A stretch of 64,000 nucleotides of DNA from Leptolyngbyaceae cyanobacterium (GCA_965263355.1 CBDHHL010000032.1:3456001-3520000); one strand, 5' to 3'; positions 6,121 to 19,542 are shown, counted from the stretch's first letter. Notes: generated by a model not told the origin, from the sequence alone. Program-made: numbers and translations.

Positions 6121-7881
6121 CTAAAACCTTTGTTCACGTTTCTTGCGCTCAACGGTCTCACGGGCAATATCATAGGCTTCTGAAAACGTTTGGAAAGATT
6201 CTCGTGAGAAAATATCTTCTTTTGTTAGAGTTTCACCTGCCTCAAAAAAGAGTGTATCTAAGCGATTAGAGAGTGTATTGAGATCGCTGCCCTCTGACTC
6301 AATTTTCGTCATTAGCTCAACCACCTCATCGACATAAATTGACGAAAACCGACGCTGCCTTTCTTCAATTTCACGTTCGATCATTTCGCGGGCTGACTTA
6401 TACGCCTCACTAAACGCACGAAAACCCTCATGGTCAAGGCTAGAACTAGCAAATTGAAACGCTTTATCCAGTTCTGCATGTTGATCAGAAAGATAGACCA
6501 ACCGCGAAGTGAGCCAGTTTTTATCATCCGCCTGACGTGGCTGGTCGTAGATATTGAGTTTTTTCATCAACTCCACAAGCACCTTGATCTGCTTATTAGC
6601 TTGGGTCTTTCTAAAGCTGGTGTAGCCTGAATAGGCTAAAAGTGCCAGGGTAATAATCAACGCAAGAAAGTCCGCGTTTTCAATTACAAACGGTACCTGA
6701 AACGGAGTAAAGAAAGCCGTTGCCCCCCGATGGGCCGGAATGACGGTCTCGGTTGTCGGTGCAGTTATATTGCTGACTAAAGGCACCACAGACTCTGGGT
6801 TAAAATCAGCTGCTGTAAATTCCTCTGACTTCACCAATGTTGCCAGGGCATCCCGCAGTTCTTGCTGGTGCTCAAAGAGAATTCTGGTCAGCGTCTTAGC
6901 ATGGCCCTTAGGCAAGGATTTATGGGCCACCAGCAATCGTTCGATCGCAATCGTATCTAAATCAGTAGGCGGTACAGGGGGAGAACCTTGGTAGGTACCT
7001 TGGGGAATAGAGGACGCTTGATAGGCCGGATAAGTGGTCCCTTCCAGGGCCTTTGCCTGGGGAATCGCAACAGGTACCCAACCTTGGGCAATCAGCTGTT
7101 GAATTCTGCGATTCCCCAATCGCCGCACTCTAAAGACAGCAGCCACATCATTTCTGGCTAGCGTTTCTTTCAGTTCTTGAGGCCCATCCTGTCTACTCAG
7201 TCCAAGATGAATATCTAAGTAGAACGGAAAATTAAAGTGCTCGGCCAAGGTTTTGAGAGAGGGACGCTGTCCGCCTGCTTCTGGTGTGGCAATCTTTTGC
7301 CCATTTAGCTGATTTGGCCCAATGGTTAGTTTAGACAGGTCGGCCATTTCTGGACTTGTGAGGTTGATTTTTTCAGGATCTACCAGCAGTTGAAAATGGT
7401 CTTGGTAAAGAATAGCCAGTGCTCTAGCTGAGGCAGCCGACGGTAAACCAGCAGGGCTATCATCAGCCCGTTGAGGAATCAGCGAATAATAAAGCCGGTC
7501 AGCCTGGGCCGTAATTAGATTGACCTTGAGATTGGCAATTGAACGTCCTGATGTGCAGCTGGCTGGGTTGACTAAAGATTTTCTCTCAAGCGCACGGATA
7601 TTATCATCTGTGCCATCGGTCGCACATACGTCTAGCCGAATGGACGAGTTAGCTTCTACCACGTCTTTAAAGGCACGACTAAACAGATAGCTTTCTCCCG
7701 TTTTATTGCCCGCCGCCAGAACTAGGTATGAACCACTCAAGCCGAAAAATCGTAGCAAAAACCAGATCAGACCAATAAATAATCCACCACCGAGAAGAAA
7801 CAGTGGATATATAGCTTTGGCCGGTTGCTCAGATAGGGCAGCTGAAATAGCTGAGGGCTTTTTTCGAAAACTCGTCGACAT
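6121..7881 (-). CDS. TAXI-family (TRAP-associated) solute-binding protein with membrane anchors and C-terminal helical extension
   Basis: LAAGNKTGESY, TDGTDDNI, IPQGTYQGSPPVP and PAHRGA TAXI-like motifs; TM segments at both ends of the domain. Confidence 0.75.
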   Translation of the reverse strand: MSTSFRKKPSAISAALSEQPAKAIYPLFLLGGGLFIGLIWFLLRFFGLSGSYLVLAAGNKTGESYLFSRAFKDVVEANSSIRLDVCATDGTDDNIRALERKSLVNPASCTSGRSIANLKVNLITAQADRLYYSLIPQRADDSPAGLPSAASARALAILYQDHFQLLVDPEKINLTSPEMADLSKLTIGPNQLNGQKIATPEAGGQRPSLKTLAEHFNFPFYLDIHLGLSRQDGPQELKETLARNDVAAVFRVRRLGNRRIQQLIAQGWVPVAIPQAKALEGTTYPAYQASSIPQGTYQGSPPVPPTDLDTIAIERLLVAHKSLPKGHAKTLTRILFEHQQELRDALATLVKSEEFTAADFNPESVVPLVSNITAPTTETVIPAHRGATAFFTPFQVPFVIENADFLALIITLALLAYSGYTSFRKTQANKQIKVLVELMKKLNIYDQPRQADDKNWLTSRLVYLSDQHAELDKAFQFASSSLDHEGFRAFSEAYKSAREMIEREIEERQRRFSSIYVDEVVELMTKIESEGSDLNTLSNRLDTLFFEAGETLTKEDIFSRESFQTFSEAYDIARETVERKKREQRF

Positions 7882-8116
7882 GGTGCTAACAACACACTAA
7901 TAAAAAGAACATCAAGCCGGGTAAGGGGCTAAACCTACTGTTTACCTTTTTCTTTCAGGAGCCGCCCAGGCAATTCCTGTACCCGGTTTTATTAACAAAA
8001 GTTAAAATATCGATGTATCCTACCCGGCAAATCTGCTCTGTCAGGTTGCGTCTTTGGATACGTAGCACGCCCCCAAAGCTCCCTAGAATTAGGTTTGGGA
8101 ACTCAAGGAATAGCCC

Positions 8117-9397
8117 ATGACCATCTGGCATACAGGACTGCACCACAGTATTAAGTTGATTGCCGGATTAGGGCTACTGCTGCTGCCTGGTTGCGGTTTT
8201 TTTACCCCCAGTGAAGCCCAAGTAGGTCGTCCAGGTAAGCCTGAACGTTCAGAAAATCAGCCCGTTGCTGTAGAAACCGCTCGCGCCCAAACTAGCACTC
8301 TCATAGCAGCACTGGACTACACTGGCACGACCCAACCCCAGCAACAGATAGCCCTACGAGCCCAGACGGCTGGGGAGATAGTGGCACTCAACGTAGACGT
8401 AAGCGATGCGGTACAGCCAGGGATGATATTAGCCCAAATCGATAGTGGCTTATTAACCGCTCGGGTGAATGAAGCCCAGGCAGAGCTATCCGTCAGACAG
8501 TCAGAAGTAGTCCAGGATCAGGTCTCGATTGCCGATGCCCAGGCAGTTGTCGCCCAAGCCAAAGCGACTAGAGACCAGGCAAAAATCGATGCCGACCGCC
8601 TGCGGCAATTAGCCAACCAAGGAGCCATTTCTCACCAAGCCGCTGAAGCCGCCGAGTTAGCGTTGGCCAATGCCAAAGAGACCGTTAATGCAGCTGAGGC
8701 CCAGGTACAGGCAAGGCAGCAAGCCATTGCCGCCGCCACCAGTCGAGTAGATGCTCAGCAAGCCGTCGTTGCAGAAGCCAAGGAACAGCTACGGTGGGTG
8801 AATTTAAAGGCCCAAAGGTCTGCCACTGTGCTTGCTCGCCTGGTTGACCCTGGTGACTACGTTCAGCCAGGAACGACTCTATTAGAACTTGGCGACCTCA
8901 GTACATTAAAAATCGCGGTTCAAGTGTCCGAGCTAGACTTTGGGCAACTCACCATGGGTCAACCGGCCCAGATTCGACTTGATGCATTTCCAGAGATCGA
9001 CGATCTCACCGGTCGTATCACTCGCATTTCACCAGTGGCCGATGCCACATCGCGGTTAGTGACGGTGGAGGTGACGGTGACGAACCCTGATAACCGGCTT
9101 GGCAGTGGTTTATTGGCTCGGGTGCGGTTTATCCCACCGGGCGGTGAGCGTATCGTTGTGCCGATAACGGCTTTGGAGCTTGGGGTAAACGAGAATACTG
9201 TTTTTGTGGTGAAGCAAGAGAATGATCAATCTACGGTGGTAGAACGGTCAGTAAACGTAGGAGAGCGCCATCAAGGGCAGGTAGAAATTCTCTCAGGGCT
9301 GGAGAGCAATGAACCCTATGTAGTGAACAGTGATGCCCCCTTAGAGACAGGGCAGGCAGTGCGGTTGAGTATTTTGTCTGACGGAGTAGGTGAGTGA
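8117..9397 (+). CDS. RND efflux periplasmic adaptor (membrane fusion protein)
   Basis: Lipobox-like LPGC, long coiled coil, GRITRISPVAD; directly upstream of an RND permease. Confidence 0.92.
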   Translation: MTIWHTGLHHSIKLIAGLGLLLLPGCGFFTPSEAQVGRPGKPERSENQPVAVETARAQTSTLIAALDYTGTTQPQQQIALRAQTAGEIVALNVDVSDAVQPGMILAQIDSGLLTARVNEAQAELSVRQSEVVQDQVSIADAQAVVAQAKATRDQAKIDADRLRQLANQGAISHQAAEAAELALANAKETVNAAEAQVQARQQAIAAATSRVDAQQAVVAEAKEQLRWVNLKAQRSATVLARLVDPGDYVQPGTTLLELGDLSTLKIAVQVSELDFGQLTMGQPAQIRLDAFPEIDDLTGRITRISPVADATSRLVTVEVTVTNPDNRLGSGLLARVRFIPPGGERIVVPITALELGVNENTVFVVKQENDQSTVVERSVNVGERHQGQVEILSGLESNEPYVVNSDAPLETGQAVRLSILSDGVGE

Positions 9398-9400
9398 ACC

Positions 9401-12400
9401 ATGGGCCTCAGCAAACTTGCCATTCGTCGCCATATTGCCACGCTGATGCTGTCCGTGGCCGTCATCGTCTTGGGGCTATTTTTTACCTCGCAACTGCCGG
9501 TAGACCTGCTGCCCTCCATTACCTACCCACGCATCGGTGTGCGGGCCGATGCCCCAGGGGTATCTCCAGAGGTCGCCGTTGATGAAGTTACCCGCCCTTT
9601 GGAGCAAGCGTTGGCAGCAACAGAAGGCGTTATCCAGGTCGTCTCTAAAACACGGGAGGGGCGAGTCAGTGTTGACCTATATTTTGAACCAGGAGGAGAC
9701 ATTGATCAGGCCTTGAATGACGCGACAGCAACATTAAACCGGGCTCGGAACCGACTGCCCGACAACATTGACCAGCCACGCTTATTTAAGTTTGATCCGT
9801 CTCAGCTGCCAGTCTATGAAATCGCGCTCACCTCAGAATCATTGCAGGGCATGGAGCTACGGGTATTTGCCGATGAGGAACTGGCACGGGAACTAAATAC
9901 TGTAAAAGGGGTGGCCAGTGTAGATGTGTCAGGGGGTGTACAGGAAGAGGTTCAGGTAAATCTGGACCCGACACGGATGCAGGCTTTGGGGTTAGGAATT
10001 ACCGATGTGTTGGATGCCTTAGAAGAACGCAATCAAGACACCGCTGGGGGACGCATAAAAGGCTTAAACAGCGAGCCGCTAACCAGGGTAAACGGTCAGT
10101 TTCAAGAGGCTGAGGAGATTCGTAATCTCATTTTTGAAGTGGGCGACCAGCAGGTATATCTGCGAGACTTTGCTGACGTGGTAGATGGCACCGAAGAACA
10201 ACGGATTTTTGTCAGTCTAAATGGTCAGCCAGCGGTGAAGGTAAGTGTCCAAAAGCAACCGACGGCTAACACCATTGCTGTGGTAGATGGGGTTAAACAG
10301 CGTCTGGAGCAGATGAAAGCATCGGGTCTTGTCCCCGAGGATATGGTGCTCAACGTCACCTTAGATGAATCGATATTTATTCAAAATGCTATTCGCAATG
10401 TCGCCACAGCCGGTCTAACGGGAACAGGTCTAGCAGCTATTGCCGTACTGTTGTTTCTAGGCTCCCTACGACAGACGTTTATTATTGTTTTAGCCATTCC
10501 CCTCGCCAGTCTAGTCACCCTGTTACTGTCGGGTGTATTTGGGCTATCGCTCAATGTGTTTAGTCTGGGGGGATTGGCCCTCGGTGTGGGCATCGTGGTA
10601 GATAACGCCATTGTCATGTTGGAGAACATTGCCGAAGGGGTGGCACGCAGTTCTCGACCAGCAATTCGTCAGGCGGAAACCAGCAGCCAGGAATTAGAAT
10701 CAGCCCTGGTGGCATCGACAACCACAAATTTGGTGGCAGTGCTACCGTTTTTGTTAATGGGTGGGTTTATCTCGCTGTTGTTTAGTGAGCTGGTGGTGAC
10801 CATTAGTCTAGCAGTGGCAGCATCGCTGGTGGTGGCCCTGACGGTGGTCCCCACTTTGGCAGCACGGTTACTAACCGTCAAAGCATCTAGTGGCATAGGA
10901 AAATTTTGGCCGATTCGGTGGTTTGGTCAGGGTCTACAGGGGCTCACCCTGAGCTATGGTAGAACGCTGAGCTGGGTGTTGCAGCGGAGAGTGGTGGTGA
11001 TTGCTGCTGCTATTCTCATATTTGGTGGGGGGAGCTGGGCTATGTATCAAACCATTCCCCAGGAGATTTTGCCCAAGATCAGCAATGGTCAGGCCAGGGT
11101 GTGGGTCAGTCTGCCCCCTGGCACTACCTTAGATGAAAATCGCCAGGTGATGACTGCGATAGATGAGCTGCTTATAGCTCAGCCAGAAACTGACTATGTG
11201 TTTAGCACCTCAGGGGGCTTTCTCTTTGGAAATATCAGCATCGACAATGCGCTGCGTGGGTCTAGTACTCTCACATTAAAACCTGGCACCGATGTGGAAG
11301 CCTTTACTGACCGGATGAACCAAGCGCTGAGGAAGCTAAATTTGGTCAAAACGCGGATGCGAGTATCTCCTGGCTCGGTTCGGGGTTTGATTTTAAGTAA
11401 CTCTCCTGTGCGCAGCGATGTGGATATTGTTTTGCAAAGTAGTAATTTAGCGCTGCTAGATCAAGCTGGGGAGCAGGTACTGGATGCCCTGGCAGAACAG
11501 GCCACTTTGGCTAGCTATCTACCTGACGCGGATCCACCACAGCCGGAAATTCAGATTCGGCCTGATTGGGAGCGGGCGGCGGATGTGGGTATCTCGGCGG
11601 AGGAGATTGGTCGGACGGTGGAGACGATTTTGTCAGGGGCGGTGCCGACGCAGCTACAGCGGGGAGATCGGCTGGTGGATGTGCGGGTGCAGACACCGGA
11701 TAGTTTTGTACAGAATTCGGCTCAGTTGAGTCAGCTGCCGTTGTTGAGTAGTAATCAACAAGTCCGACTAGGAGACATTGCAAGGATTGAGCAGGGTCGG
11801 TCTCCTGGAGAAATTCAGCGGATTGATCAGCGGCAGGTATTTATTATCGAGGGGCGTTTGGCGGATGAAGCTAGCTTGGGTGAGGCACTGGATGAGGTAG
11901 AGCAGGTGATGGCGCAGGTAATGCTACCAGAGGGGGTGACGCGGTTGCCTAGCTTTAGTGCCCAGAGTAATGCAGCGATTCAGCAGGGGCTGGGTTTATT
12001 GGGTGGGCTGGCGGTCTTTTTGGTATTTACGGTGATGGCGGTGCAGTACAACTCGCTGATCGATCCGTTGGTGATTATGCTAACGGTGCCGTTGGCGTTG
12101 GCTGGGGGGATTTTGGGGCTGTATGTGACGGCGACGGCGATTGGGGCAACGGTGGTAGTGGGGGCGGTGCTACTGGTGGGCATTGTGGTAAACAATGGGA
12201 TTATTTTAGTGGAGCTGGCAAATCAGATTTATGTGACCGAAAACTGTAGTCGCATGGTTGCCATGCTCAAAGCAGCTCCGCAACGGTTACGACCGATTTT
12301 GATGACGACGGTGACGACGGTGTTGGGGATGTTGCCGTTGGCGTTGGGACTAGGAGAAGGGTCGGAGTTTTTGCAGCCGTTGGGGGTAGTGATTTTTTGG

Positions 12401-12544
12401 GGATTGTCGTTGGCGACGGTGTTGACGTTATTTGTGATTCCTTGTTTTTATACGTTGTTGCATGGGTTCGGCTCCGCTCACCCAGCAGCGCAACCTGTTG
12501 CCCAGCCTCTGGCTGAGCACAGCAACCCCAGGCTCCGCCTGTAG
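9401..12544 (+). CDS. RND efflux permease, AcrB/AcrD/AcrF family
   Basis: 1047 aa; LPVDLLP, GIVVDNAIV and RLRPILMT motifs. Confidence 0.95.
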   Translation: MGLSKLAIRRHIATLMLSVAVIVLGLFFTSQLPVDLLPSITYPRIGVRADAPGVSPEVAVDEVTRPLEQALAATEGVIQVVSKTREGRVSVDLYFEPGGDIDQALNDATATLNRARNRLPDNIDQPRLFKFDPSQLPVYEIALTSESLQGMELRVFADEELARELNTVKGVASVDVSGGVQEEVQVNLDPTRMQALGLGITDVLDALEERNQDTAGGRIKGLNSEPLTRVNGQFQEAEEIRNLIFEVGDQQVYLRDFADVVDGTEEQRIFVSLNGQPAVKVSVQKQPTANTIAVVDGVKQRLEQMKASGLVPEDMVLNVTLDESIFIQNAIRNVATAGLTGTGLAAIAVLLFLGSLRQTFIIVLAIPLASLVTLLLSGVFGLSLNVFSLGGLALGVGIVVDNAIVMLENIAEGVARSSRPAIRQAETSSQELESALVASTTTNLVAVLPFLLMGGFISLLFSELVVTISLAVAASLVVALTVVPTLAARLLTVKASSGIGKFWPIRWFGQGLQGLTLSYGRTLSWVLQRRVVVIAAAILIFGGGSWAMYQTIPQEILPKISNGQARVWVSLPPGTTLDENRQVMTAIDELLIAQPETDYVFSTSGGFLFGNISIDNALRGSSTLTLKPGTDVEAFTDRMNQALRKLNLVKTRMRVSPGSVRGLILSNSPVRSDVDIVLQSSNLALLDQAGEQVLDALAEQATLASYLPDADPPQPEIQIRPDWERAADVGISAEEIGRTVETILSGAVPTQLQRGDRLVDVRVQTPDSFVQNSAQLSQLPLLSSNQQVRLGDIARIEQGRSPGEIQRIDQRQVFIIEGRLADEASLGEALDEVEQVMAQVMLPEGVTRLPSFSAQSNAAIQQGLGLLGGLAVFLVFTVMAVQYNSLIDPLVIMLTVPLALAGGILGLYVTATAIGATVVVGAVLLVGIVVNNGIILVELANQIYVTENCSRMVAMLKAAPQRLRPILMTTVTTVLGMLPLALGLGEGSEFLQPLGVVIFWGLSLATVLTLFVIPCFYTLLHGFGSAHPAAQPVAQPLAEHSNPRLRL

Positions 12545-13240: not shown

Positions 13241-16200
13241 ATGGCAATGACCAAGGATGAGCTGCTGGCGTTGATTGACCAGGCGGCGGCGGAAGGGTGG
13301 ACGGAGTTGGACCTGGCGGGGCAGGGGCTGAGCGAACTGCCAGAGGAGATTGGCAAGCTGACGCAGCTGGAGCGGTTGATATTGGGAAAGGGGAAAAAGG
13401 ATAAGGATGGGAAGCAGCAATGGAGATTCGAATTCATTGATGGTAAACATCGCTCAGTTGCTCTGACAATCGGTAATAAGCTGACAGCTTTGCCAGCTTG
13501 CTTGAAACAGCTATCTGAGCTGCGTCACTTAGATATTAGCGGTAATCCAATTAGTCTAATACCTGAGAATATTAGTGAGTTATCTCAACTAAAAACATTT
13601 ATTGCTCTTAAGAGTAAATTAACCCAAATTCCGGATTCCATCGCCCAGCTAGCCTCTCTACAACAGCTCTACCTTAACCAAATTACAGAGATTCCGGATT
13701 CCATCGCCCAGCTAGCCTCTCTACAACAGCTCGACCTCAGCTCTAACCAAATTACAGAGATTCCGGATTCCATCGCCCAGCTAGCCTCTCTACAACAGCT
13801 CGACCTCAGCTCTAACCAAATTACAGAGATTCCGGATTCCATCGCCCAGCTAGCCTCTCTACAACAGCTCGACCTCAGCTCTAACCAAATTACAGAGATT
13901 CCGGATTCCATCGCCCAGCTAGCCTCTCTACAACAGCTCGACCTCAGCTCTAACCAAATTACAGAGATTCCGGATTCCATCGCCCAGCTAGCCTCTCTAC
14001 AACAGCTCGACCTCAGCGATAACCAAATTACAGAGATTCCGGATTCCATCGCCCAGCTAGCCTCTCTACAACAGCTCGACCTCAGCTCTAACCAAATTAC
14101 AGAGATTCCGGATTCCATCGCCCAGCTAGCCTCTCTACAACAGCTCGACCTCCGCTCTAACCAAATTACAGAGATTCCGGATTCCATCGCCCAGCTAGCC
14201 TCTCTACAACAGCTCTACCTCAGCTCTAACCAAATTACAGAGATTCCGGATTCCATCGCCCAGCTAGCCTCTCTACAACAGCTCGACCTCAGCTCTAACC
14301 AAATTACAGAGATTCCGGATTCCATCGCCCAGCTAGCCTCTCTACAACAGCTCGACCTCAGCGATAACCAAATTACAGAGATTCCGGATTCCATCGCCCA
14401 GCTAGCCTCTCTACAACAGCTCTACCTCAGCTCTAACCAAATTACAGAGATTCCGGATTCCATCGCCCAGCTAGCCTCTCTACAACAGCTCTACCTCCGC
14501 TATAACCAAATTACAGAGATTCCGGATTCCATCGCCCAGCTAGCCTCTCTACAACAGCTCTACCTCAGCTCTAACCAAATTACAGAGATTCCGGATTCCA
14601 TCGCCCAGCTAGCCTCTCTACAACAGCTCGACCTCAGCGATAACCAAATTACAGAGATTCCGGATTCCATCGCCCAGCTAGCCTCTCTACAACAGCTCTA
14701 CCTCAGCTCTAACCAAATTACAGAGATTCCGGATTCCATCGCCCAGCTAGCCTCTCTACAACAGCTCGACCTCAGCTCTAACCAAATTACAGAGATTCCG
14801 GATTCCATCGCCCAGCTAGCCTCTCTACAACAGCTCTACCTCCGCTATAACCAAATTACAGAGATTCCGGATTCCATCGCCCAGCTAGCCTCTCTACAAC
14901 AGCTCTACCTCCGCTATAACCAAATTACAGAGATTCCGGATTCCATCGCCCAGCTAGCCTCTCTACAACAGCTCTACCTCAGCTATAACCAAATTACAGA
15001 GATTCCGGATTCCATCGCCCAGCTAGCCTCTCTACAACAGCTCTACCTCCGCTATAACCAAATTACAGAGATTCCGGATTCCATCGCCCAGCTAGCCTCT
15101 CTACAACAGCTCGACCTCCGCTCTAACCAAATTACAGAGATTCCGGATTCCATCGCCCAGCTAGCCTCTCTACAACAGCTCGACCTCCGCTCTAACCAAA
15201 TTACAGAGATTCCGGATTCCATCGCCCAGCTAGCCTCTCTACAACAGCTCGACCTCCGCTATAACCAAATTACAGAGATTCCAGGCAGTTTAGAAAGCTT
15301 AGAACAACTACAAAGACTCGATGTTCGTCATAATCCACTACCCATTGCACCAGAAATCCTGGGTCCTCCAGAAGACTATGAAGAACCAGGGCCAGTTTCC
15401 GGCATCTTCAACTACTGCCGCCAGCTCCGCAGCGGCGAAGTCCGCCCCCTTAATGAAGCCAAACTTATCCTGGTTGGCCAGGGCAGCGTCGGCAAAACAT
15501 CCCTGATCAACCGACTGATCGAAGATTCCTTTAACCCCAACGAAGCACAAACCGACGGTCTCAATGTGTCCAACTGGGCCATCAACGTCAACACCAAAGA
15601 CGTGCGCCTCAACGTCTGGGACTTTGGCGGTCAAGAAATCTATCATGCCACTCACCAATTCTTTCTGACTAAGCGCAGCCTTTATCTACTCGTCTGCAAC
15701 TGCCGCACCAGCGAAGAAGAAAACCGCCTCGACTACTGGCTCAAACTGATCAAAAGTTTCGGTGACGATGCCCCCGTCATTATCGTTGGCAACAAGCGTG
15801 ACGAACAACCCCTCGATATCAACCGAAAAGCTTTACGGAGCAAATACCCCAACATTAAAGACATTATTGAAACTTCCTGTCAAACTGGCGATGGCATCAA
15901 AGAACTGAACCAAGCAATTAATAAAGAGGTAGGACAGCTTAAAGAAGTGTACGATCTGCTTCCTCTTTCTTGGTTTGAAGTCAAAGAACACCTAGAAAAT
16001 TTAGACAAAGACTTTATCAAATACTCCAAATACGAAAGCATTTGTGACCAGCAAGGCATCGAAGAAGAAAAAGATCAAACCCAGTAATAATTGGGCTGCT
16101 TCACAACCTGGGTCTGGTACTCAACTACAGCCGACCATCCTCTTTTAAAATACACTAACGTCCTAAATCCAGACTGGGTTACCACAGGCATTTATACGTT

Positions 16201-17026
16201 GCTGAGTGATGAGAACTTAAAGACAAAATCTAAAGGTCAACTAACCCTTGATGACCTTAGTCGGGTACTAAATCCCCAACGCTATCCAGTACATCGCCAT
16301 CATTACCTCATCGAACTGATGAAAGAATTCAAGCTATGCTTTGAACTGCCAGACTGCAAGCCTGCTCGATATCTTATTCCTGGCATCCTACCCAAAGAAG
16401 AACCAGAAGAGACTGACTTAGAAGGAGAAACTCTAAATTTCCAATATCATTACAGCGTATTGCCAGATAGTGTTATCTCGCGTTTCATCGTATACATGCA
16501 CGAAAAAATCCATAAGGAAACCTACTGGCGCAGCGGAGTAATGCTTGCTCACACTGAAGGCAATGAGGTTTACAATATTGCCCGCATCAAAGCCGACCCT
16601 GCCGACAATAAAATCTTTATCGCTGTTAGTGGCAAGGAATCTACCCGACGTACCTTTCTCGGAATGATCCGTGATGTATTCAACAAAAAAGTACACATCA
16701 ATTTGACTAAACCTACTGAGTGGGTTCCTGTCCCTGATCATCCCGATCATCCACCACTCGATTACCAAGAACTGCTTGGTCTAGAAGACATGAACGAACA
16801 AAACGTAGTCATCGGCAAACTCAAACTCAAACTAAACCTACGCCAACTCCTCGACGGCTACGAACCCATCGAAATCCGCAGACTCAAACAAAAAGGAGTA
16901 GACATAGATAGTACTGGCGACGGAATCAATATTTCCGTCACCGATGCCCGCACCAAAATCATCCAACAAGGCGATGGCGACAATGTTGCCGGAGACTTAA
17001 TAGAAGGGAATAAAACAATCACATAA
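13241..17026 (+). CDS. LRR-Roc-COR (Roco) protein, interrupted by two compensating frameshifts at about 16085-16129 (ORF track splits it into 13241-16087 and 16091-17026)
   Basis: LRRs, Roc GTPase motifs GQGSVGKT, WDFGGQE and NKRD; COR motifs LLHNLGLVLNY (shifted frame), VLNPDWVTTGIY and YWRSGV. Confidence 0.9.
13676..15262 (+). repeat. 23 x 69-bp coding tandem repeat (23-aa LRR units), with partial units at 13628-13675 and 15263-15282
   Basis: Unit AACCAAATTACAGAGATTCCGGATTCCATCGCCCAGCTAGCCTCTCTACAACAGCTC[G/T]ACCTC[A/C]GC[TC/GA/TA]T. Confidence 0.97.
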
Positions 17027-17069
17027 CCATGAAATTTAACGCTATCCTGAGAGTAATTCATGACTCCCA

Positions 17070-17639
17070 ATGACCTCATTAGTCCGCCTACAGCTACTCG
17101 ACGTCGTCGCCCTCAAAGCCGACCTACCAGACCATAATCTCACCGCAGGCCAGGTCGGCACCCTGGTCGAAGAATTAGCCCCTAACGTCTACGAAGTCGA
17201 ATTCAGCGACGACCATGGCCAAACCTACGCCATGCTACCCCTCCACACCGACCAAGTCCTTAAACTAAGCTACACACCAGGAGAACCAACCATGGGCAAC
17301 ACTATCAATCAATACGGCTCTGGCGACAACATCGCAGGCGACAAAGTCATGGGCGACAAAATCAATACCCAAATCAACAACAGCCAGGACTTAGCCCAGG
17401 CCGCTAAAGCCATCAAAGACCTCCTCACCCAACTCGAAACCGACTACGACCCCACCACCCCCGTCGGTCAAACCATGATGACCGCCAAACTCATCGAATC
17501 CGTCGATAACAACCCCACCCTCAAAGCCCGAGTCGTCAACGCCCTCAAAGAAGGCGGTAGCACGGCCCTTGAAGAAGCCATTGATCATCCGATAGTAAAA
17601 CCTGTGGTCGCTGCTCTCAAAGGCTTTATGGATGCATGA
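17070..17639 (+). CDS. DUF4926-like domain + Gly/Asn/Asp-rich motif + C-terminal helical domain
   Basis: LLDVVAL..DLP...GQVGTLVE...YEVEFSD..GQTYA N-terminus, then INQYGSGDNIAGDKVMGDK and a helical DLAQAAKAIKDLL...NPTLKARVVNALKEGG domain. Confidence 0.8.
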   Translation: MTSLVRLQLLDVVALKADLPDHNLTAGQVGTLVEELAPNVYEVEFSDDHGQTYAMLPLHTDQVLKLSYTPGEPTMGNTINQYGSGDNIAGDKVMGDKINTQINNSQDLAQAAKAIKDLLTQLETDYDPTTPVGQTMMTAKLIESVDNNPTLKARVVNALKEGGSTALEEAIDHPIVKPVVAALKGFMDA

Positions 17640-17735: not shown

Positions 17736-18185
17736 ATGTCAACGCCCTATTCTCCCCAGGCCGCAGCCCAAGAACCCTTTCTCGCAACGATCAGGGAACT
17801 AGTGCGTGCCTATCAAGCATTTTCAGCCTATTCCGAAGCCTTCGTGCGGCAGCATGACCTAACCCCAGCGCAATTTGATGTCATCGCCACTTTAGGCAAT
17901 ACCCAAGGCATGAGCATGGGTGATATCGGCGAAAAGACGTTGATCACCAAAGGTACGTTAACAGGTGTGGTTGATCGTCTGATCAAAAAAGGACTCGTGA
18001 CCCGTGAGGTCCCCCCCGAAAACCGTCGTAGTGTTATCGTCAAACTTACGGCTGAGGGAGACGCCCTGTTTGAGCAAGTATTCCCGGCCCACATTGCCGA
18101 CATGAAACAGCATTTTGACTCCTTTAACCCGTCAGAATTGGAACTACTCAAAGTGCTACTAGGCCGACTCCGCCAGGCATTTTAG
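17736..18185 (+). CDS. MarR-family transcriptional regulator
   Basis: LTPAQFDVI, TLTGVVDRL..KGLV.R and NRRSVIVKLTAEG winged-helix motifs. Confidence 0.92.
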   Translation: MSTPYSPQAAAQEPFLATIRELVRAYQAFSAYSEAFVRQHDLTPAQFDVIATLGNTQGMSMGDIGEKTLITKGTLTGVVDRLIKKGLVTREVPPENRRSVIVKLTAEGDALFEQVFPAHIADMKQHFDSFNPSELELLKVLLGRLRQAF

Positions 18186-18275: not shown

Positions 18276-18411
18276 GTTTCAGATTAAATTACCCCTATGT
18301 ATCAGCAACCCTCTCCAACCGTAGTCACCCTGGAAGTCGGCACTCACTGGCACAGTGCCTACGCCCTTAGTCATCAGTTCAGCAAGCGCCATTCACCAAA
18401 CACCTAAAGCC

Positions 18412-19542
18412 ATGTCATCTCTGCCATCCCTATTTGTCTCCCACGGAGCACCCGATTTACCAATTCGGACAGGGTCAACCCAAACATTTCTGCAACAGTT
18501 GGCCAGCACAATGCCCACACCACAGGCCATCTTGATTATCTCGGCCCACTGGCTTACAGCTGTCCCTACCGTCAGCACCCACCCAAACCCTAAAACGGTC
18601 TATGACTTTGGCGGTTTTTCACCTGAGTTATATCAGCTTAGGTATCCAGCTGCTGGTGCTCCAGATGTCGCCAACCGGGTGGCAGAGTTACTTACCGCAG
18701 CCAACCTACCAGCCCAGACCAATGCTACTCGGGGATTTGATCACGGTATTTGGACTCCCTTGATCTTGATCTATCCAGATGCTGAAATACCGGTTGTCCA
18801 AATGTCACTCCAACCGACTCAAGGACCGGAATATCATCTAAAGCTCGGTCAACTATTAGCCCCATTGCGGTCAGAAGGCATTGCTGACACCAACTATACG
18901 GGTCGGGTCACCGTTCCTGTTCTTTGGGACAAAAAGACCCAGACCATTGTTAATAATGAGTCTCGTCAGATCATTCAAATGTTGAACTCAGAGTTTAATG
19001 AATTTGCAACATTTCCAGCACGAGACTTCTACCCTGAGAATTTACGCCCTGAAATTGATCGGGTGATGGATAGTATTTATCAGCCCATTAACAATGGTGT
19101 TTATCGGAGTGGGTTTGCTGCTTCCCAAACGGCTTATAACGCAGCCGTCACAGAACTATTCGCGGCCCTAGACCATTGGGAAGATATTTTAGCAAAACAG
19201 CGCTACCTATGCGGCGATCAGCTGACGTTAGCAGATTGGTGTTTATTTACTACCCTTTTTCGCTTTGATTTGGCTTATTACGGTTTGTTTAAGTGCAATC
19301 TCAAACGACTCGTTGACTATCCTAATCTGTGGGCCTATTGCCGCGAACTGTACCAACTAGAGAGAAACTGGTGCAACATCGACCATGTTAAACAGCTTTA
19401 CTATGCTGGTCTACCTGAACTTAATCCTGGTGGCATTATCCCGGTGGGGCCAAAAATTGATTTTGAGCAGGCCCATGGTCGCGAGAGTGATAAGTTCTCT
19501 GAAATCGGCAATTTACTGGCCGATTGTTTGGCCACTCAGTAG
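18412..19542 (+). pseudogene. In-frame chimera: N-terminal part of LigB/DODA-type extradiol dioxygenase fused to C-terminal part of glutathionyl-hydroquinone reductase (YqjG/ECM4-like GST)
   Basis: SHGAP, ISAHW and RGFDHG motifs end at LAPLRSEGI, then abruptly ADTNYTGRVTVPVLWD...NNGVYRSGF. Both halves are incomplete. Confidence 0.8.

Follow-up and report, generated by a model that had tools for sequence, protein, structure and literature searches.

A putative two-gene LRR-Roc-COR conflict system in a cyanobacterium, with a shared 25-residue motif on the sensor and its candidate effector

Comparison with described systems

Prokaryotic conflict systems that combine LRRs with an AP-GTPase (Roc) and a COR were described by Kaur et al. 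2021 (PMC8195603; eLife 10:e70394), according to whom the C-terminus bears TIR, caspase or another effector, or else “different EADs”. The locus studied here, two adjacent genes within a 64,000-nucleotide stretch of cyanobacterial DNA (the window), resembles these systems, as there described, in its rapidly evolving LRRs, its Roc-COR switch, the C-terminal position that TIR, caspase or CHAT may take, and the many paralogues per genome. It is unlike them in that gene 1 ends in a 25-residue motif instead of a domain, and in that the effector is a separate gene. A preliminary description had held this architecture to be undescribed, which stands only in part: LRR-Roc-COR systems with C-terminal effectors are known from that study, while the motif and the partner appear there without annotation. 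A motif-tailed Roco belonging to the family of gene 1, ESA37051.1 (818 aa), is listed in its Figure 6 source data as “LRR-repeats+AP-GTPase+COR*->?->?->?”, and this plain entry with its “?” neighbours indicates that motif and partner were left unannotated. Furthermore, a search through 12 of its 13 supplementary files found no DUF4926.

In the BASS1-10 Bell/NLR pairs, as presented in the text of Dyrka et al. 2020 (bioRxiv 10.1101/2020.01.06.895854), a motif of ~25 residues is likewise found at a terminus of the sensor and on an adjacent effector, the genes are collinear with a short spacer and enriched in filamentous cyanobacteria, and the motifs are rich in G, N and Q and poor in P and L. Both families also include “all-in-one” relatives that carry the effector as a direct fusion, here without the motif core in 30 of 32 cases. 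However, the sensor here is a Roco GTPase and not an NB-ARC or NACHT protein (“roc” and “gtpase” occur 0 times in the Dyrka text), and the topology is reversed: the motif sits at the sensor C-terminus and N-terminal to the effector module, as opposed to the sensor N-terminus and effector C-terminus in BASS. Moreover, no Bell domain serves as the effector, DUF4926 precedes the motif, and where published BASS motifs are said to be depleted in K, the present one is D/K-rich (K 7.9%).

Bab/Agp, an anti-phage abortive-infection pair whose sensor and effector share a motif of ~20 residues (BASS11), establishes by experiment that motifs of this kind can pass on activation in bacteria (Ibarlosa et al. 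2024, bioRxiv 10.1101/2024.11.07.622273). Going by that preprint's description, the present pair has in common with it a non-NLR sensor, a small helical effector and adjacent genes. In contrast, Bab/Agp has a sensor of TPR-GreA/B-C-PIN type, its motif lying N-terminally on the sensor and C-terminally on the effector, and amyloid formation has been demonstrated there, whereas it is a proposal here. For the helical module of the present pair, no similarity to solved structures was detected.

The EADs of Kaur et al. 2020 (eLife 9:e52696) are, in that account, similarly found as one copy on a core NTPase and one on the effector of an adjacent gene, with the same effectors directly fused in other cases. 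EADs, however, are globular domains of small size with an alpha or alpha+beta fold, and their adjacent-gene copies are reported to be mutual closest relatives, whereas the motif here is short and predicted disordered (pLDDT <50), with cognate copies no closer than non-cognate ones. No EAD family of Pfam was found on the gene 1 or gene 2 proteins.

In fungi, NWD2/HET-S and its kin pair a NACHT-WD sensor with an effector to which the signal is passed by demonstrated templating. The likeness to the present locus lies in hypervariable, near-identical sensor repeats, a short motif, and an adjacent effector that carries the motif beside a helical domain; the difference lies in another kingdom, in motif families that are unrelated, and in templating, which is here inferred.

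LRR-Roc-COR conflict systems and coupling by a motif or adaptor (BASS, EAD) are therefore already known, and what is new is the Roco sensor and the reversed topology, together with a motif family that is probably new as well. That the motif is confined, across cyanobacteria, almost entirely to neighbouring pairs suggests an immune-like system of two genes, whose sensor and effector would be linked by a peptide motif they share. We put the probability that it is a two-gene LRR-Roc-COR (“AP-GTPase”) conflict system, its separate effector coupled through the shared 25-residue motif, at roughly 0.7.

Gene 1, its repeats and its interruption

Gene 1 (13241..17029, with all features of the locus on the + strand) is a Roco gene of LRR-Roc-COR-A-COR-B-tail organisation, delineated from Pfam matches and ORFs and interrupted in this assembly; for the Pfam run it was read through, with X placed at stops. 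It has 570 relatives at E<=1e-3. The LRRs match LRR_8 (E 8e-236) and are followed by the Roc GTPase (15461..15802; PF08477, residues 741-854, 113.7 bits, E 7.9e-33), in which the P-loop GQGSVGKT, DFGGQ and NKRD can be read in the translation. COR-A (15962..16390; PF16095, residues 908-1050, 108.5 bits), which holds the break, and COR-B (16427..16858; PF25497, residues 1063-1206, 108.5 bits) complete the core. A Roc with P-loop, DxxG and NKxD and a COR directly after it identify the protein as a Roco.

The LRR array (13628..15282) consists of 24 near-identical units of 69 nt (23 aa), for which Tandem Repeats Finder gave a period of 69, 24.1 copies and 97% matches, although in a near-perfect tandem array of 1.6 kb the assembled copy number and order are possibly wrong. 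Among the 23 full 23-residue units variation is confined to residues 15 (D/Y), 17 (S/R) and 18 (S/D/Y), which are x positions of LxLxxN on the concave surface. Only four nucleotide columns vary, all of them non-synonymously, with 0 synonymous differences, and gene 1 thus carries the rapidly evolving N-terminal LRRs that characterise AP-GTPase conflict systems. The preliminary description, which had read gene 1 as an LRR array varying only at surface positions, followed by Roc, COR and a terminal G/N/D-rich motif, is borne out on both counts by the three LxLxxN positions, Pfam and the motif HMM.

Gene 1 falls into two ORFs of the same frame (13241..16087 and 16091..17026), separated by an in-frame TAA TAA at 16085-16090. 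Three-frame translation shows an out-of-frame segment (16085..16129) made up of TAA TAA and then ~14 wrong-frame codons, over which the true COR-A reading continues in another frame. Aligned to two relatives, the window has 2 extra nt near 16086 and 1 extra nt near 16128, both within COR-A. Contigs from public runs (X1-X4) carry neither the 2 nt at 16086 nor the 1 nt at 16128/16129; in the three runs that contain 73-87% of the words of the locus, the contigs are free of both insertions and their frame is open throughout. An intact allele of gene 1 is present in the samples of those runs. Window and contigs further differ by 15-19 substitutions, all those listed falling inside one patch (15847..16129), and 3' of it X1 and X2 equal the window exactly. 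What interrupts the window's copy may be a variant, a patch of gene conversion or a chimera of the assembly.

It could be argued that the locus is a dead relic in this genome, with a Roco pseudogene and a gene 2 that has either been left an orphan or works with other motif-tailed sensors. Besides the double stop and the two frameshifting insertions, this would agree with the decay of such genes elsewhere, since ~7-8 of 20 motif-tailed Rocos in relatives, roughly one third, carry nonsense codons, frameshifts or internal deletions that disrupt them, and with a motif that is universal and not pair-specific, so that orphan effectors could persist. We nevertheless consider it unlikely, given that the contigs of the three public runs read through and that gene 2 and the tail of gene 1 are intact, with 97% identity to a database relative.

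The sense codons of gene 1 end at 17026, with the stop at 17027-17029, and gene 2 starts on the same strand at 17070, leaving 40 nt from stop to ATG, or the 43 nt of the preliminary description when counted from the last sense codon. The surroundings of the pair in the window (an RND efflux pump, MarR and genes of metabolism) do not make up a defence island.

Gene 2 and the shared motif

Gene 2 (17070..17639, 189 aa; 402 relatives at E<=1e-3) encodes DUF4926, the motif and a four-helix bundle, as an ORF modelled with AlphaFold2. Its DUF4926 (17094..17258; PF16277, residues 9-63, 82.1 bits against a cut-off of 29.1) is an SH3-like small beta-barrel, the model of which reached Z 6-8 in VIA-align against SH3/KOW-type barrels (3fc3_A: Z 8.0, rmsd 2.3, 55 aligned). 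Elsewhere, DUF4926 has been proposed to be an immunity protein for DUF6883 RNases. Downstream lie a conserved Met75 and the effector-side (E) copy of the motif (together 17292..17369, motif residues 76-100; HMM 55.6 bits), and stand-alone relatives of 115 aa begin at precisely this Met75.

The C-terminal helical bundle, module B (17385..17633), is predicted by AlphaFold2 to consist of helices 106-125, 131-147, 149-171 and 176-188 (pLDDT 78 for the module model). It is without a Pfam family: at E<=1 nothing was found beyond one chance-level match, and a fold search gave a best Z of 5.5 and Foldseek E values of at least 0.47, none informative. The ESM Atlas offered, as a lead, a TCAD2 cluster at cosine 0.88 to module B; hmmscan at E<=1 did not return PF19971 (TCAD2), nor was PF19971 matched at E<=1e-3 in 110 Roco tails; the pentapeptide-repeat family PF00805 likewise was not among the Pfam matches of gene 2 or module B. 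With relatives in 1967 representative clusters at E<=1e-3, the module is nearly always C-terminal, and of 28 long carriers scanned, 20 were Roc/COR proteins and 4 pentapeptide or LRR repeat proteins. Its position makes module B a candidate effector.

The sensor-side (R) copy occupies the last 25 residues of gene 1 (16952..17026; HMM 35.5 bits) and is conserved in 46 of the 120 Roco relatives listed. This C-terminus matched no Pfam, NCBIfam or PADLOC family, and no C-terminal effector domain or EAD was found on the same polypeptide. Both scores come from an HMM of 25 columns built without the window's own sequences, so that the claim of a motif shared by the two genes holds, as does the proposed make-up of gene 2 from a DUF4926-like domain, this motif and a helical domain (Pfam, motif HMM, AlphaFold2). 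The two copies are identical at ~12 of 25 positions (0.48). In composition the motif is G 18%, D 11%, N 11%, K 7.9%, Q 7%, L 1% and P 0.3%, with a period of five residues (G-D-x-[IV]-x) that spans just three or so units; on the E side these units grow to 5-6 copies in relatives, their number varying. Across 20 pairs, Q6, G8, D11 and N12 are invariant on both sides and G10, G15 and D16 nearly so. Other positions are side-specific: H7, E9, F13, G14, R17 and E19 on the R side, and Y7, S/K9, I/V13, A14, K17 and M19 on the E side. Conservation of both copies extends from Leptolyngbya-like genomes to Nostoc-like ones. In the monomer the motif is predicted to be disordered (gene 2 residues 70-104, pLDDT <50); AlphaFold2 drew no beta structure in it, and the module-only model renders part of it as a low-confidence helix.

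Pairing across cyanobacteria

A search for COR-B (PF25497) in 401 cyanobacterial genomes yielded 112 matches in 60 genomes, and all 112 loci were examined. Of the Rocos whose tail is the motif alone, 9/9 are followed immediately downstream by a co-oriented ORF that bears the motif, against 1 of the 103 remaining Roc-COR loci with motif-like neighbours (Fisher p 1.8e-12). When whole genomes were searched with a degenerate DNA pattern of 32 bits, using the reversed pattern as control, a phylum sample of 401 genomes gave 25 matches in 14 genomes, 20 of which form 10 same-strand pairs 290-660 nt apart, and a second sample of 401 genomes gave 33 matches in 22 genomes; the control gave 0 in both. 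Of the single matches examined, each proved to be a pair whose partner motif is degenerate, a cis fusion or a contig end, with the exception of two module proteins (L130 and L132) that have no sensor-type neighbour. In all, 22 pairs were collected besides that of the window, and the motif is found almost only in adjacent pairs.

These counts bear on whether the motif is a generic low-complexity linker, or a chance similarity, with no function in pairing. Its biased composition (G, D and N above all) and its pentapeptide-like repeats of variable number could be read that way. Yet the motif-core regular expression occurs only twice in the six-frame translation of the 64 kb window, in gene 1 and in gene 2, over 802 genome searches the reversed control stayed at 0 where the true pattern gave 25 and 33 matches, paired in nearly every case, the neighbour test separates 9/9 from 1/103, and four residues are invariant on both sides of 20 pairs, which makes this reading very improbable indeed. 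The suggestions that the motif would be enriched in adjacent genes and the pair conserved are thereby supported, whereas the expected co-variation of paired motifs was not detected among 20 pairs (cognate 0.493 vs non-cognate 0.478, permutation p 0.09). In one genome, two pairs (L096 and L118) carry near-identical motifs, and pairs are therefore not visibly insulated from one another.

Partners consist of DUF4926, the motif, and then the helical module B, a hydrophobic module C or, in one partner, CHAT. Among 110 Roco tails, module C occurs in cis in 21 and module B in 11, and 30 of these 32 fusions have no motif-like core, which suggests that the motif is a coupling device for a sensor and an effector encoded as separate genes. 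DUF4926 was not found in the 12 cis tails listed in full. A few cis fusions (L025, L110, L143 and L144) retain one motif copy, and the motif may therefore also serve the module itself. In cis tails of the Nostocales type, the first residues of the R motif are joined directly to the linker and the Met that precede the partner's motif. Other tails of the 110 carry TIR (24) or CHAT (4). Gene 2 thus occupies the effector position, a view supported by the same modules, CHAT or TIR being fused directly to other Rocos.

We lean towards an immune or abortive role for the pair. The alternative would be ordinary physiology, such as filament development, stress response or cell-cell recognition, with the partner as a regulatory adaptor instead of a toxic effector. 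PADLOC matched neither the gene 1 nor the gene 2 protein, the neighbours in the window (RND efflux pump, MarR, metabolic genes) would suit such a role, module B has no recognisable toxic fold, and in the papers found by literature searches no bacterial Roco has an anti-phage role demonstrated by experiment. Conversely, paralogous Rocos carry TIR (24/110) or CHAT (4/110) in the same position, as does one partner with CHAT, and the LRRs are diversified only at ligand-facing positions with zero synonymous change. Many paralogues per genome (seven COR-B matches in the genome with the two near-identical pairs) and frequent pseudogenisation are moreover hallmarks of conflict genes, and Kaur et al. 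2021 (PMC8195603) class proteins of this type as conflict systems. Taken together, we regard a physiological role as improbable.

How the motif may couple sensor and effector

That the motif mediates the coupling between sensor and effector we consider quite probable; what happens physically is a separate matter. In the proposed course of events, an invader-derived ligand would be bound by the hypervariable concave face of the LRRs, and the Roc-COR GTPase switch would alter the dimer or oligomer state and bring the C-terminal tails together. These tails would form a beta-structured nucleus that captures the disordered partner motif, upon which the C-terminal module of the partner, a helical bundle here and a hydrophobic module or CHAT protease in relatives, would oligomerise, probably resulting in growth arrest or cell death. 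The SH3-like DUF4926 would then be a coupling or guarding part, not the killing function. Nucleated, amyloid-like assembly as the mechanism is, by analogy, a tentative proposal.

About as tentative is the specific reading in which the motif (G-D-N/G-D-K) would be a new bacterial family of signalling amyloids or beta-solenoids, with a Roco dimer as nucleus and a shared pool of effectors. Each motif copy would contribute about one rung, built from the pentapeptide-like G-D-x-[IV]-x units, onto a nucleus formed by the GTP-controlled dimer, on which free partners and stand-alone module proteins of 115 residues, encoded at other places in the genome, would polymerise, such that one sensing event could activate many effectors. 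DUF4926 would guard the motif in cis and keep it capped up to the firing of the sensor. Since the motif is universal and not pair-specific, all motif-tailed sensors of a cell, Rocos as well as a membrane protein (L137), would feed a common effector pool. If true, this would be the first amyloid-type signalosome with a small-GTPase switch as nucleator.

A simpler view is that of docking, where a constitutive, stoichiometric beta-zipper or heterodimer tethers the separate C-terminal domain, without polymerisation, templating or amplification. The occurrence of the same modules as cis fusions without the motif implies that covalent tethering suffices, the side-specific conservation is more in keeping with an interface that is asymmetric and heterotypic than with identical stacking, and a charged, D/K-rich motif is atypical next to the published BASS motifs. 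However, the motif is short, rich in G, N, Q and D and predicted disordered, the E-side units that reach 5-6 copies in relatives suit repetitive stacking, and module proteins that stand alone or have another N-terminus, away from sensors, suit the recruitment of free subunits; docking of this kind is possible, though less likely than not. Among the side observations, a membrane protein was found with a motif tail, and in two relatives EAD7 lies between COR-B and module B.

A Roco gene and its downstream neighbour

Two plus-strand genes, with 40 nt between the stop codon of gene 1 (17027-17029) and the ATG of gene 2 (17070), carry copies of one motif, which confirms the co-oriented, motif-sharing pair proposed in the preliminary description. 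When gene 1 (13241-17029) is read through with X at its stops, its translation gives Pfam matches to a long N-terminal LRR region (LRR_8, E 8e-236), Roc (residues 741-854, 113.7 bits), COR-A (908-1050, 108.5 bits) and COR-B (1063-1206, 108.5 bits), followed by a 55-residue tail that closes with a G-, D- and N-rich stretch of 25 residues. Gene 2 (17070-17639, 189 aa) contains a DUF4926 domain (residues 9-63; 82.1 bits, cut-off 29.1) and, directly after the conserved Met75, its own copy of the motif (residues 76-100), identical to the gene 1 tail at about 12 of 25 positions (identity 0.48). An AlphaFold2 model of gene 2, built from a 75-sequence alignment, consists of a small beta-barrel, a disordered stretch (70-104, pLDDT <50) and a four-helix bundle (106-188). 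While the barrel resembles SH3/KOW folds (VIA-align Z 6-8; Foldseek E about 0.03-0.1), the bundle, here termed module B, belongs to no Pfam family, and its comparison with solved folds gave nothing informative (Foldseek best E 0.47, VIA-align best Z 5.5). The VIA-align best, to TetR-type helical regions, lies within noise for helical bundles, and hmmscan did not confirm TCAD2, a lead from the ESM Atlas (0.88). PADLOC matched neither protein, and GapS6a, the sole NCBIfam row, stayed below threshold (15.4 bits, cut-off 90). A complex prediction of COR-B plus tail (residues 113-311) with gene 2, using their own alignments and run without controls, scored 0.02 against a mark of 0.32, which speaks neither for nor against an interaction.

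Tandem Repeats Finder resolves the LRR array (13628-15282) into 69-nt units, 24.1 copies with 97% identity, although copy number and order are hard to assemble in so uniform an array. Across the 23 full units, variation is confined to residues 15 (D/Y), 17 (S/R) and 18 (S/D/Y), which occupy the x positions of LxLxxN on the ligand-facing strand of the LRR fold. Just four DNA columns differ between units, all of them non-synonymously and with zero synonymous differences. The earlier account of an array varying only at its surface was therefore accurate, and three-position diversification of this kind offers a compact prokaryotic case of a receptor being diversified. The minimal alphabet at the variable sites (Tyr, Ser, Asp, Arg) derives from four two-state nucleotide positions, and the first unit is shorter by 2 residues. 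A diversity-generating retroelement was considered as the source of the variation and rejected, since the alternating nucleotides (G/T, A/C, T/G and A/C) do not show the adenine specificity characteristic of such elements.

The motif in adjacent gene pairs

Within the window, a regular expression for the motif core, applied to the six-frame translation of all 64 kb, matches solely in genes 1 and 2. Database searches returned 402 relatives of gene 2 (E<=1e-3) and 570 of the Roco. Among the matches listed of these 570, 46 of 120 Roco relatives carry the motif, nearly always as the extreme end of the protein, and others end in the motif plus bundle module, a hydrophobic module (module C), TIR, or pentapeptide runs of GDK type. 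The motif with its helical bundle is also encoded on its own, in proteins of about 115 aa whose first residue is a conserved Met, and it is found behind DUF4926, DUF2283 and other N-termini. RTX-type or canonical pentapeptide repeats do not account for the motif, as periodicity and consensus misfit and no Pfam match was obtained.

To see how far the tail motif is matched in the neighbouring gene, we took all 112 loci (about 13 kb each) with a COR-B match (PF25497) in 401 cyanobacterial genomes, 60 of which contain such matches, and scanned all six-frame ORFs (1.42 million residues) with a 25-column motif HMM built from 116 unique database instances, window sequences left out. All nine Rocos whose tail consists of the motif only have a motif-bearing, co-oriented ORF immediately downstream (17-57 bits), compared with one of the 103 Rocos with another C-terminus, a rearranged variant (L117; Fisher's exact p 1.8e-12). 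The proposed enrichment in the neighbouring gene is thus clearly present. A census by DNA pattern points the same way: a 33-nt degenerate pattern for the motif core (about 32 bits) gave 25 matches in 14 genomes of a phylum-wide sample and 33 matches in 22 genomes of an order-wide sample (401 genomes each), the reversed control giving 0 in both. Spurious matches numbered one in the former (with stop codons inside) and two in the latter. In the phylum sample, 20 matches form ten same-strand pairs 290-660 nt apart. Inspection of the unpaired matches of both samples revealed mostly pairs with a deviant partner motif, fusions into one polypeptide (L143, L144) or matches at contig ends; two loci (L130, L132) have no sensor-type neighbour. 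Because neighbour test and census both place the motif in adjacent pairs, it is not a generic low-complexity linker.

In total we collected 23 pairs encoded as separate genes (trans pairs), in 20 of which a Roc-COR protein or its remnant lies upstream. In the other three the upstream protein ending in the motif is not a Roc-COR protein: two are unknown fragments (L131, L141). The third, L137, encodes a 417-aa non-Roco protein (6625-8213, minus strand) with a hydrophobic helix before a sensor-type motif tail; it has no Pfam family, and its gene runs into the 5' end of a free-standing module B gene. On the strength of L137, sensors of other types may use the motif as well.

The expectation that paired motifs co-vary was not borne out: across 20 pairs, identity is 0.493 for cognate and 0.478 for non-cognate combinations (permutation p 0.09). 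Sensor and effector copies share Q6, G8, D11 and N12 without exception, G10, G15 and D16 are conserved in 19 of 20 copies on each side, position 18 is close to invariant as V or I, and G20, D or N at 21, and K22 are common. The variable positions differ by side, with H7, E9, F13, G14, R17 and E19 in sensor copies against Y7, S/K9, I/V13, A14, K17 and M19 in effector copies. One genome (G001) harbors two pairs, L096 and L118, with near-identical motifs. As such, the alignments describe one universal motif family with asymmetric sensor and effector flavours, in which pair-specific tuning is not detectable in 20 pairs.

A second motif class is seen in Roco tails made of GDKVGNDKVG runs (P0134, P0177, P0189, P0212), with candidate partners such as P0098; the adjacency of tail and partner is itself a candidate, its sole basis being that both lie on 74638-nt contigs. 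A DNA pattern for this class gave 0 matches in 381 genomes.

Partner modules and the probable coupling of sensor to effector

Partners in trans pairs follow the order DUF4926, Met, motif and a variable C-terminal module. That module is either B, the type seen in the window, or C, which combines a hydrophobic segment with an acidic stretch and a basic patch; in L129 it is a CHAT protease (E 6e-13). DUF4926 is present in 16 of the trans pairs, mostly fused. In L134, L140 and L141 it forms an ORF of its own that immediately precedes the module gene. Genome G002 and loci L133, L135 and L136 lack it and have other small genes in the gap. The cassettes between Roco tail and module gene span 6793-7532 in L135, 6434-7176 in L136 and 1721-2486 in L133; two of the replacing ORFs may be XisH/XisI-like and one HNH endonuclease-like. 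In every case a Met stands before the effector-side motif (Met75 in the window, 17292-17294), and it corresponds to the start codon of the stand-alone 115-aa module proteins. This conserved Met, along with the separate DUF4926 and module ORFs in three loci, suggests an ancestral three-gene arrangement, and fused forms possibly retain an internal start. An SD-like AGGAG precedes Met75 in the window, but an internal Shine-Dalgarno sequence was rejected as a family feature: the window and its two closest relatives have it, but just 4 of 15 fused partners do. DUF4926 has been proposed as the immunity partner of DUF6883/BECR-Tox3 RNases in a 2026 preprint.

Module B is widespread (1967 representative clusters at E<=1e-3) and almost always C-terminal. 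Among 28 long carriers scanned, 20 have Roc/COR and four are pentapeptide or LRR repeat proteins; EAD7 lies between COR-B and module B in two. The same modules recur fused to the sensor: among 110 Roco tails of at least 25 aa, 21 carry module C and 11 module B in cis, next to 24 with TIR and four with CHAT. A motif-like core is absent in 30 of the 32 cis fusions, and the 12 cis tails printed in full contain no DUF4926, so that the natural cis and trans variants resemble a built-in genetic experiment. In Nostoc-type cis tails, which lack the G-D-N...G-D-K core, the first residues of the sensor-side motif run directly into the short linker and Met found ahead of the partner's motif when the two genes are separate. 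From these junctions and the missing core it follows, as far as comparison of sequences goes, that split and fused forms interconvert and that the motif core tracks the split state. No other observation argues as strongly for the motif serving to couple sensor to effector. This pattern is also the architectural signature by which fungal and bacterial amyloid signalling motifs are defined (Dyrka et al. 2020).

Would such coupling be amyloid-like? The length of the motif, its G/N/Q/I-rich and P/L-poor composition, its disorder in the monomer model, and its expandable five-residue units are all consistent with this, as are the logic of cis and trans forms and the precedent set experimentally by Bab/Agp. 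Conversely, the motif is high in D and K, its sensor and effector copies are asymmetric, beta structure is not predicted for it, and a few cis fusions retain it. Amyloid-like assembly is unproven. The pairing of sensor and partner, in contrast to its mode of assembly, is strongly supported by the comparative evidence. Given this architecture and distribution, we infer that the diversified LRR face would recognise a ligand, upon which the Roc-COR switch would alter the proximity of the tails; these could then capture the disordered motif of the partner, whose C-terminal module would oligomerise. An immune role is plausible by family context.

Roco proteins are intensively studied owing to human LRRK2, and the pair touches on how COR-mediated dimerisation relays a signal downstream. 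In the literature searched we found no bacterial Roco with an experimentally shown function, and a search for antiphage Rocos in bacteria gave unrelated papers only. With its short tail recruiting a separately encoded effector, the pair would give a bacterial Roco an output open to testing. It would also carry the principle of a shared short motif, as in fungal NLR/HET-S, bacterial BASS and mammalian RHIM, beyond STAND and TGP sensors and into a GTPase sensor, with reversed topology and an extra SH3-like component.

The architecture had been thought undescribed, which holds only in part. Prokaryotic conflict systems combining LRR, AP-GTPase and COR have been described, and their C-terminal domains, TIR, caspase and EADs among them, are of at least 24 kinds (Kaur et al. 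2021, PMC8195603); the coupling principle of EADs was set out earlier (Kaur et al. 2020, PMC7159879), and amyloid coupling by short motifs is established for NLR and TGP sensors (Dyrka et al. 2020; Ibarlosa et al. 2024). A table in Kaur et al. 2021 lists a motif-tailed member of this Roco family, with unannotated neighbours. In none of these texts is such a motif connected with a Roco: that of Dyrka et al. 2020 has 0 occurrences of 'roc' or 'gtpase', the listed titles and abstracts on amyloid signaling and Roco yielded none on a bacterial Roco, and no publication tying the two was found in a search whose scope excludes the figures of Dyrka et al., bioRxiv supplements and supplementary file 13 of Kaur et al. 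2021. The novelty is therefore narrower than first thought, and consists of the motif family, the Roco sensor, the reversed topology and the SH3-like DUF4926 accessory.

Other Roco tails are also without a Pfam family, namely a large group of C-terminal domains of about 250 aa ending in RREFLWVH.QFV.EY (L095, L097, L099, L100, L105, L108, L109, L112-L116 and L121) and several TM-containing tails. The effector repertoire of cyanobacterial Rocos is largely unannotated.

Interrupted sensor genes and flanking genes

Gene 1 is broken in the window by an in-frame TAA TAA (16085-16090), and its conserved COR-A segment is shifted to another frame for about 14 codons. Compared with the closest relatives, L001 and L002 (proteins 85-86% identical), it has 2 extra nt near 16086 and 1 near 16128. 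Three public runs cover 73-87% of the locus words, and their contigs omit exactly these 3 nt; those samples therefore contain an intact gene 1 allele. Between these contigs and the window there are 15-19 substitutions, those listed falling within 15847-16129, and in two runs (X1, X2) they are identical to it downstream of this patch. Judged by contigs rather than raw reads, the window's version may be a variant, a paralogue conversion patch or an assembly chimera. Among the public runs listed for the locus there is no RNA dataset. A search for related loci with a 311-aa ORF returned only five, in part owing to a query word that falls in the frameshifted stretch.

About 7-8 of 20 motif-tailed Rocos are disrupted (L093, L096, L128, L129, L139, L062, L066 and the window), while their partner genes are mostly intact. 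In L093 a nonsense codon replaces a conserved Trp, in L096 the LRR array contains a stop, and the rest show frameshifts, internal deletions or reduction to remnants; misassembly of repeats could account for some of these breaks. The conserved COR-A segment (LLHxLGxVLNF) is where rearrangement breakpoints cluster, and the window's divergent patch ends there too. In L062 (Roco ORF start 6668, oriented coordinates) LRR units are joined straight to this segment, and in L066 (start 254, likewise oriented) the first 50 or so Roco residues are joined to residues just past it. The segment may be a recombination hotspot among Roco paralogues.

The genes flanking the pair show no obvious defence-island context: a 1047-aa ORF the size of an RND-type efflux transporter (9401-12544) lies upstream and a MarR-family regulator (17736-18185) downstream. 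Further on, in a 395-aa ORF (18355-19542, plus strand), a truncated LigB dioxygenase (profile positions 37-165 of 269) is joined to N- and C-terminal GST domains, as if a deletion had fused two genes or the assembly had joined them.
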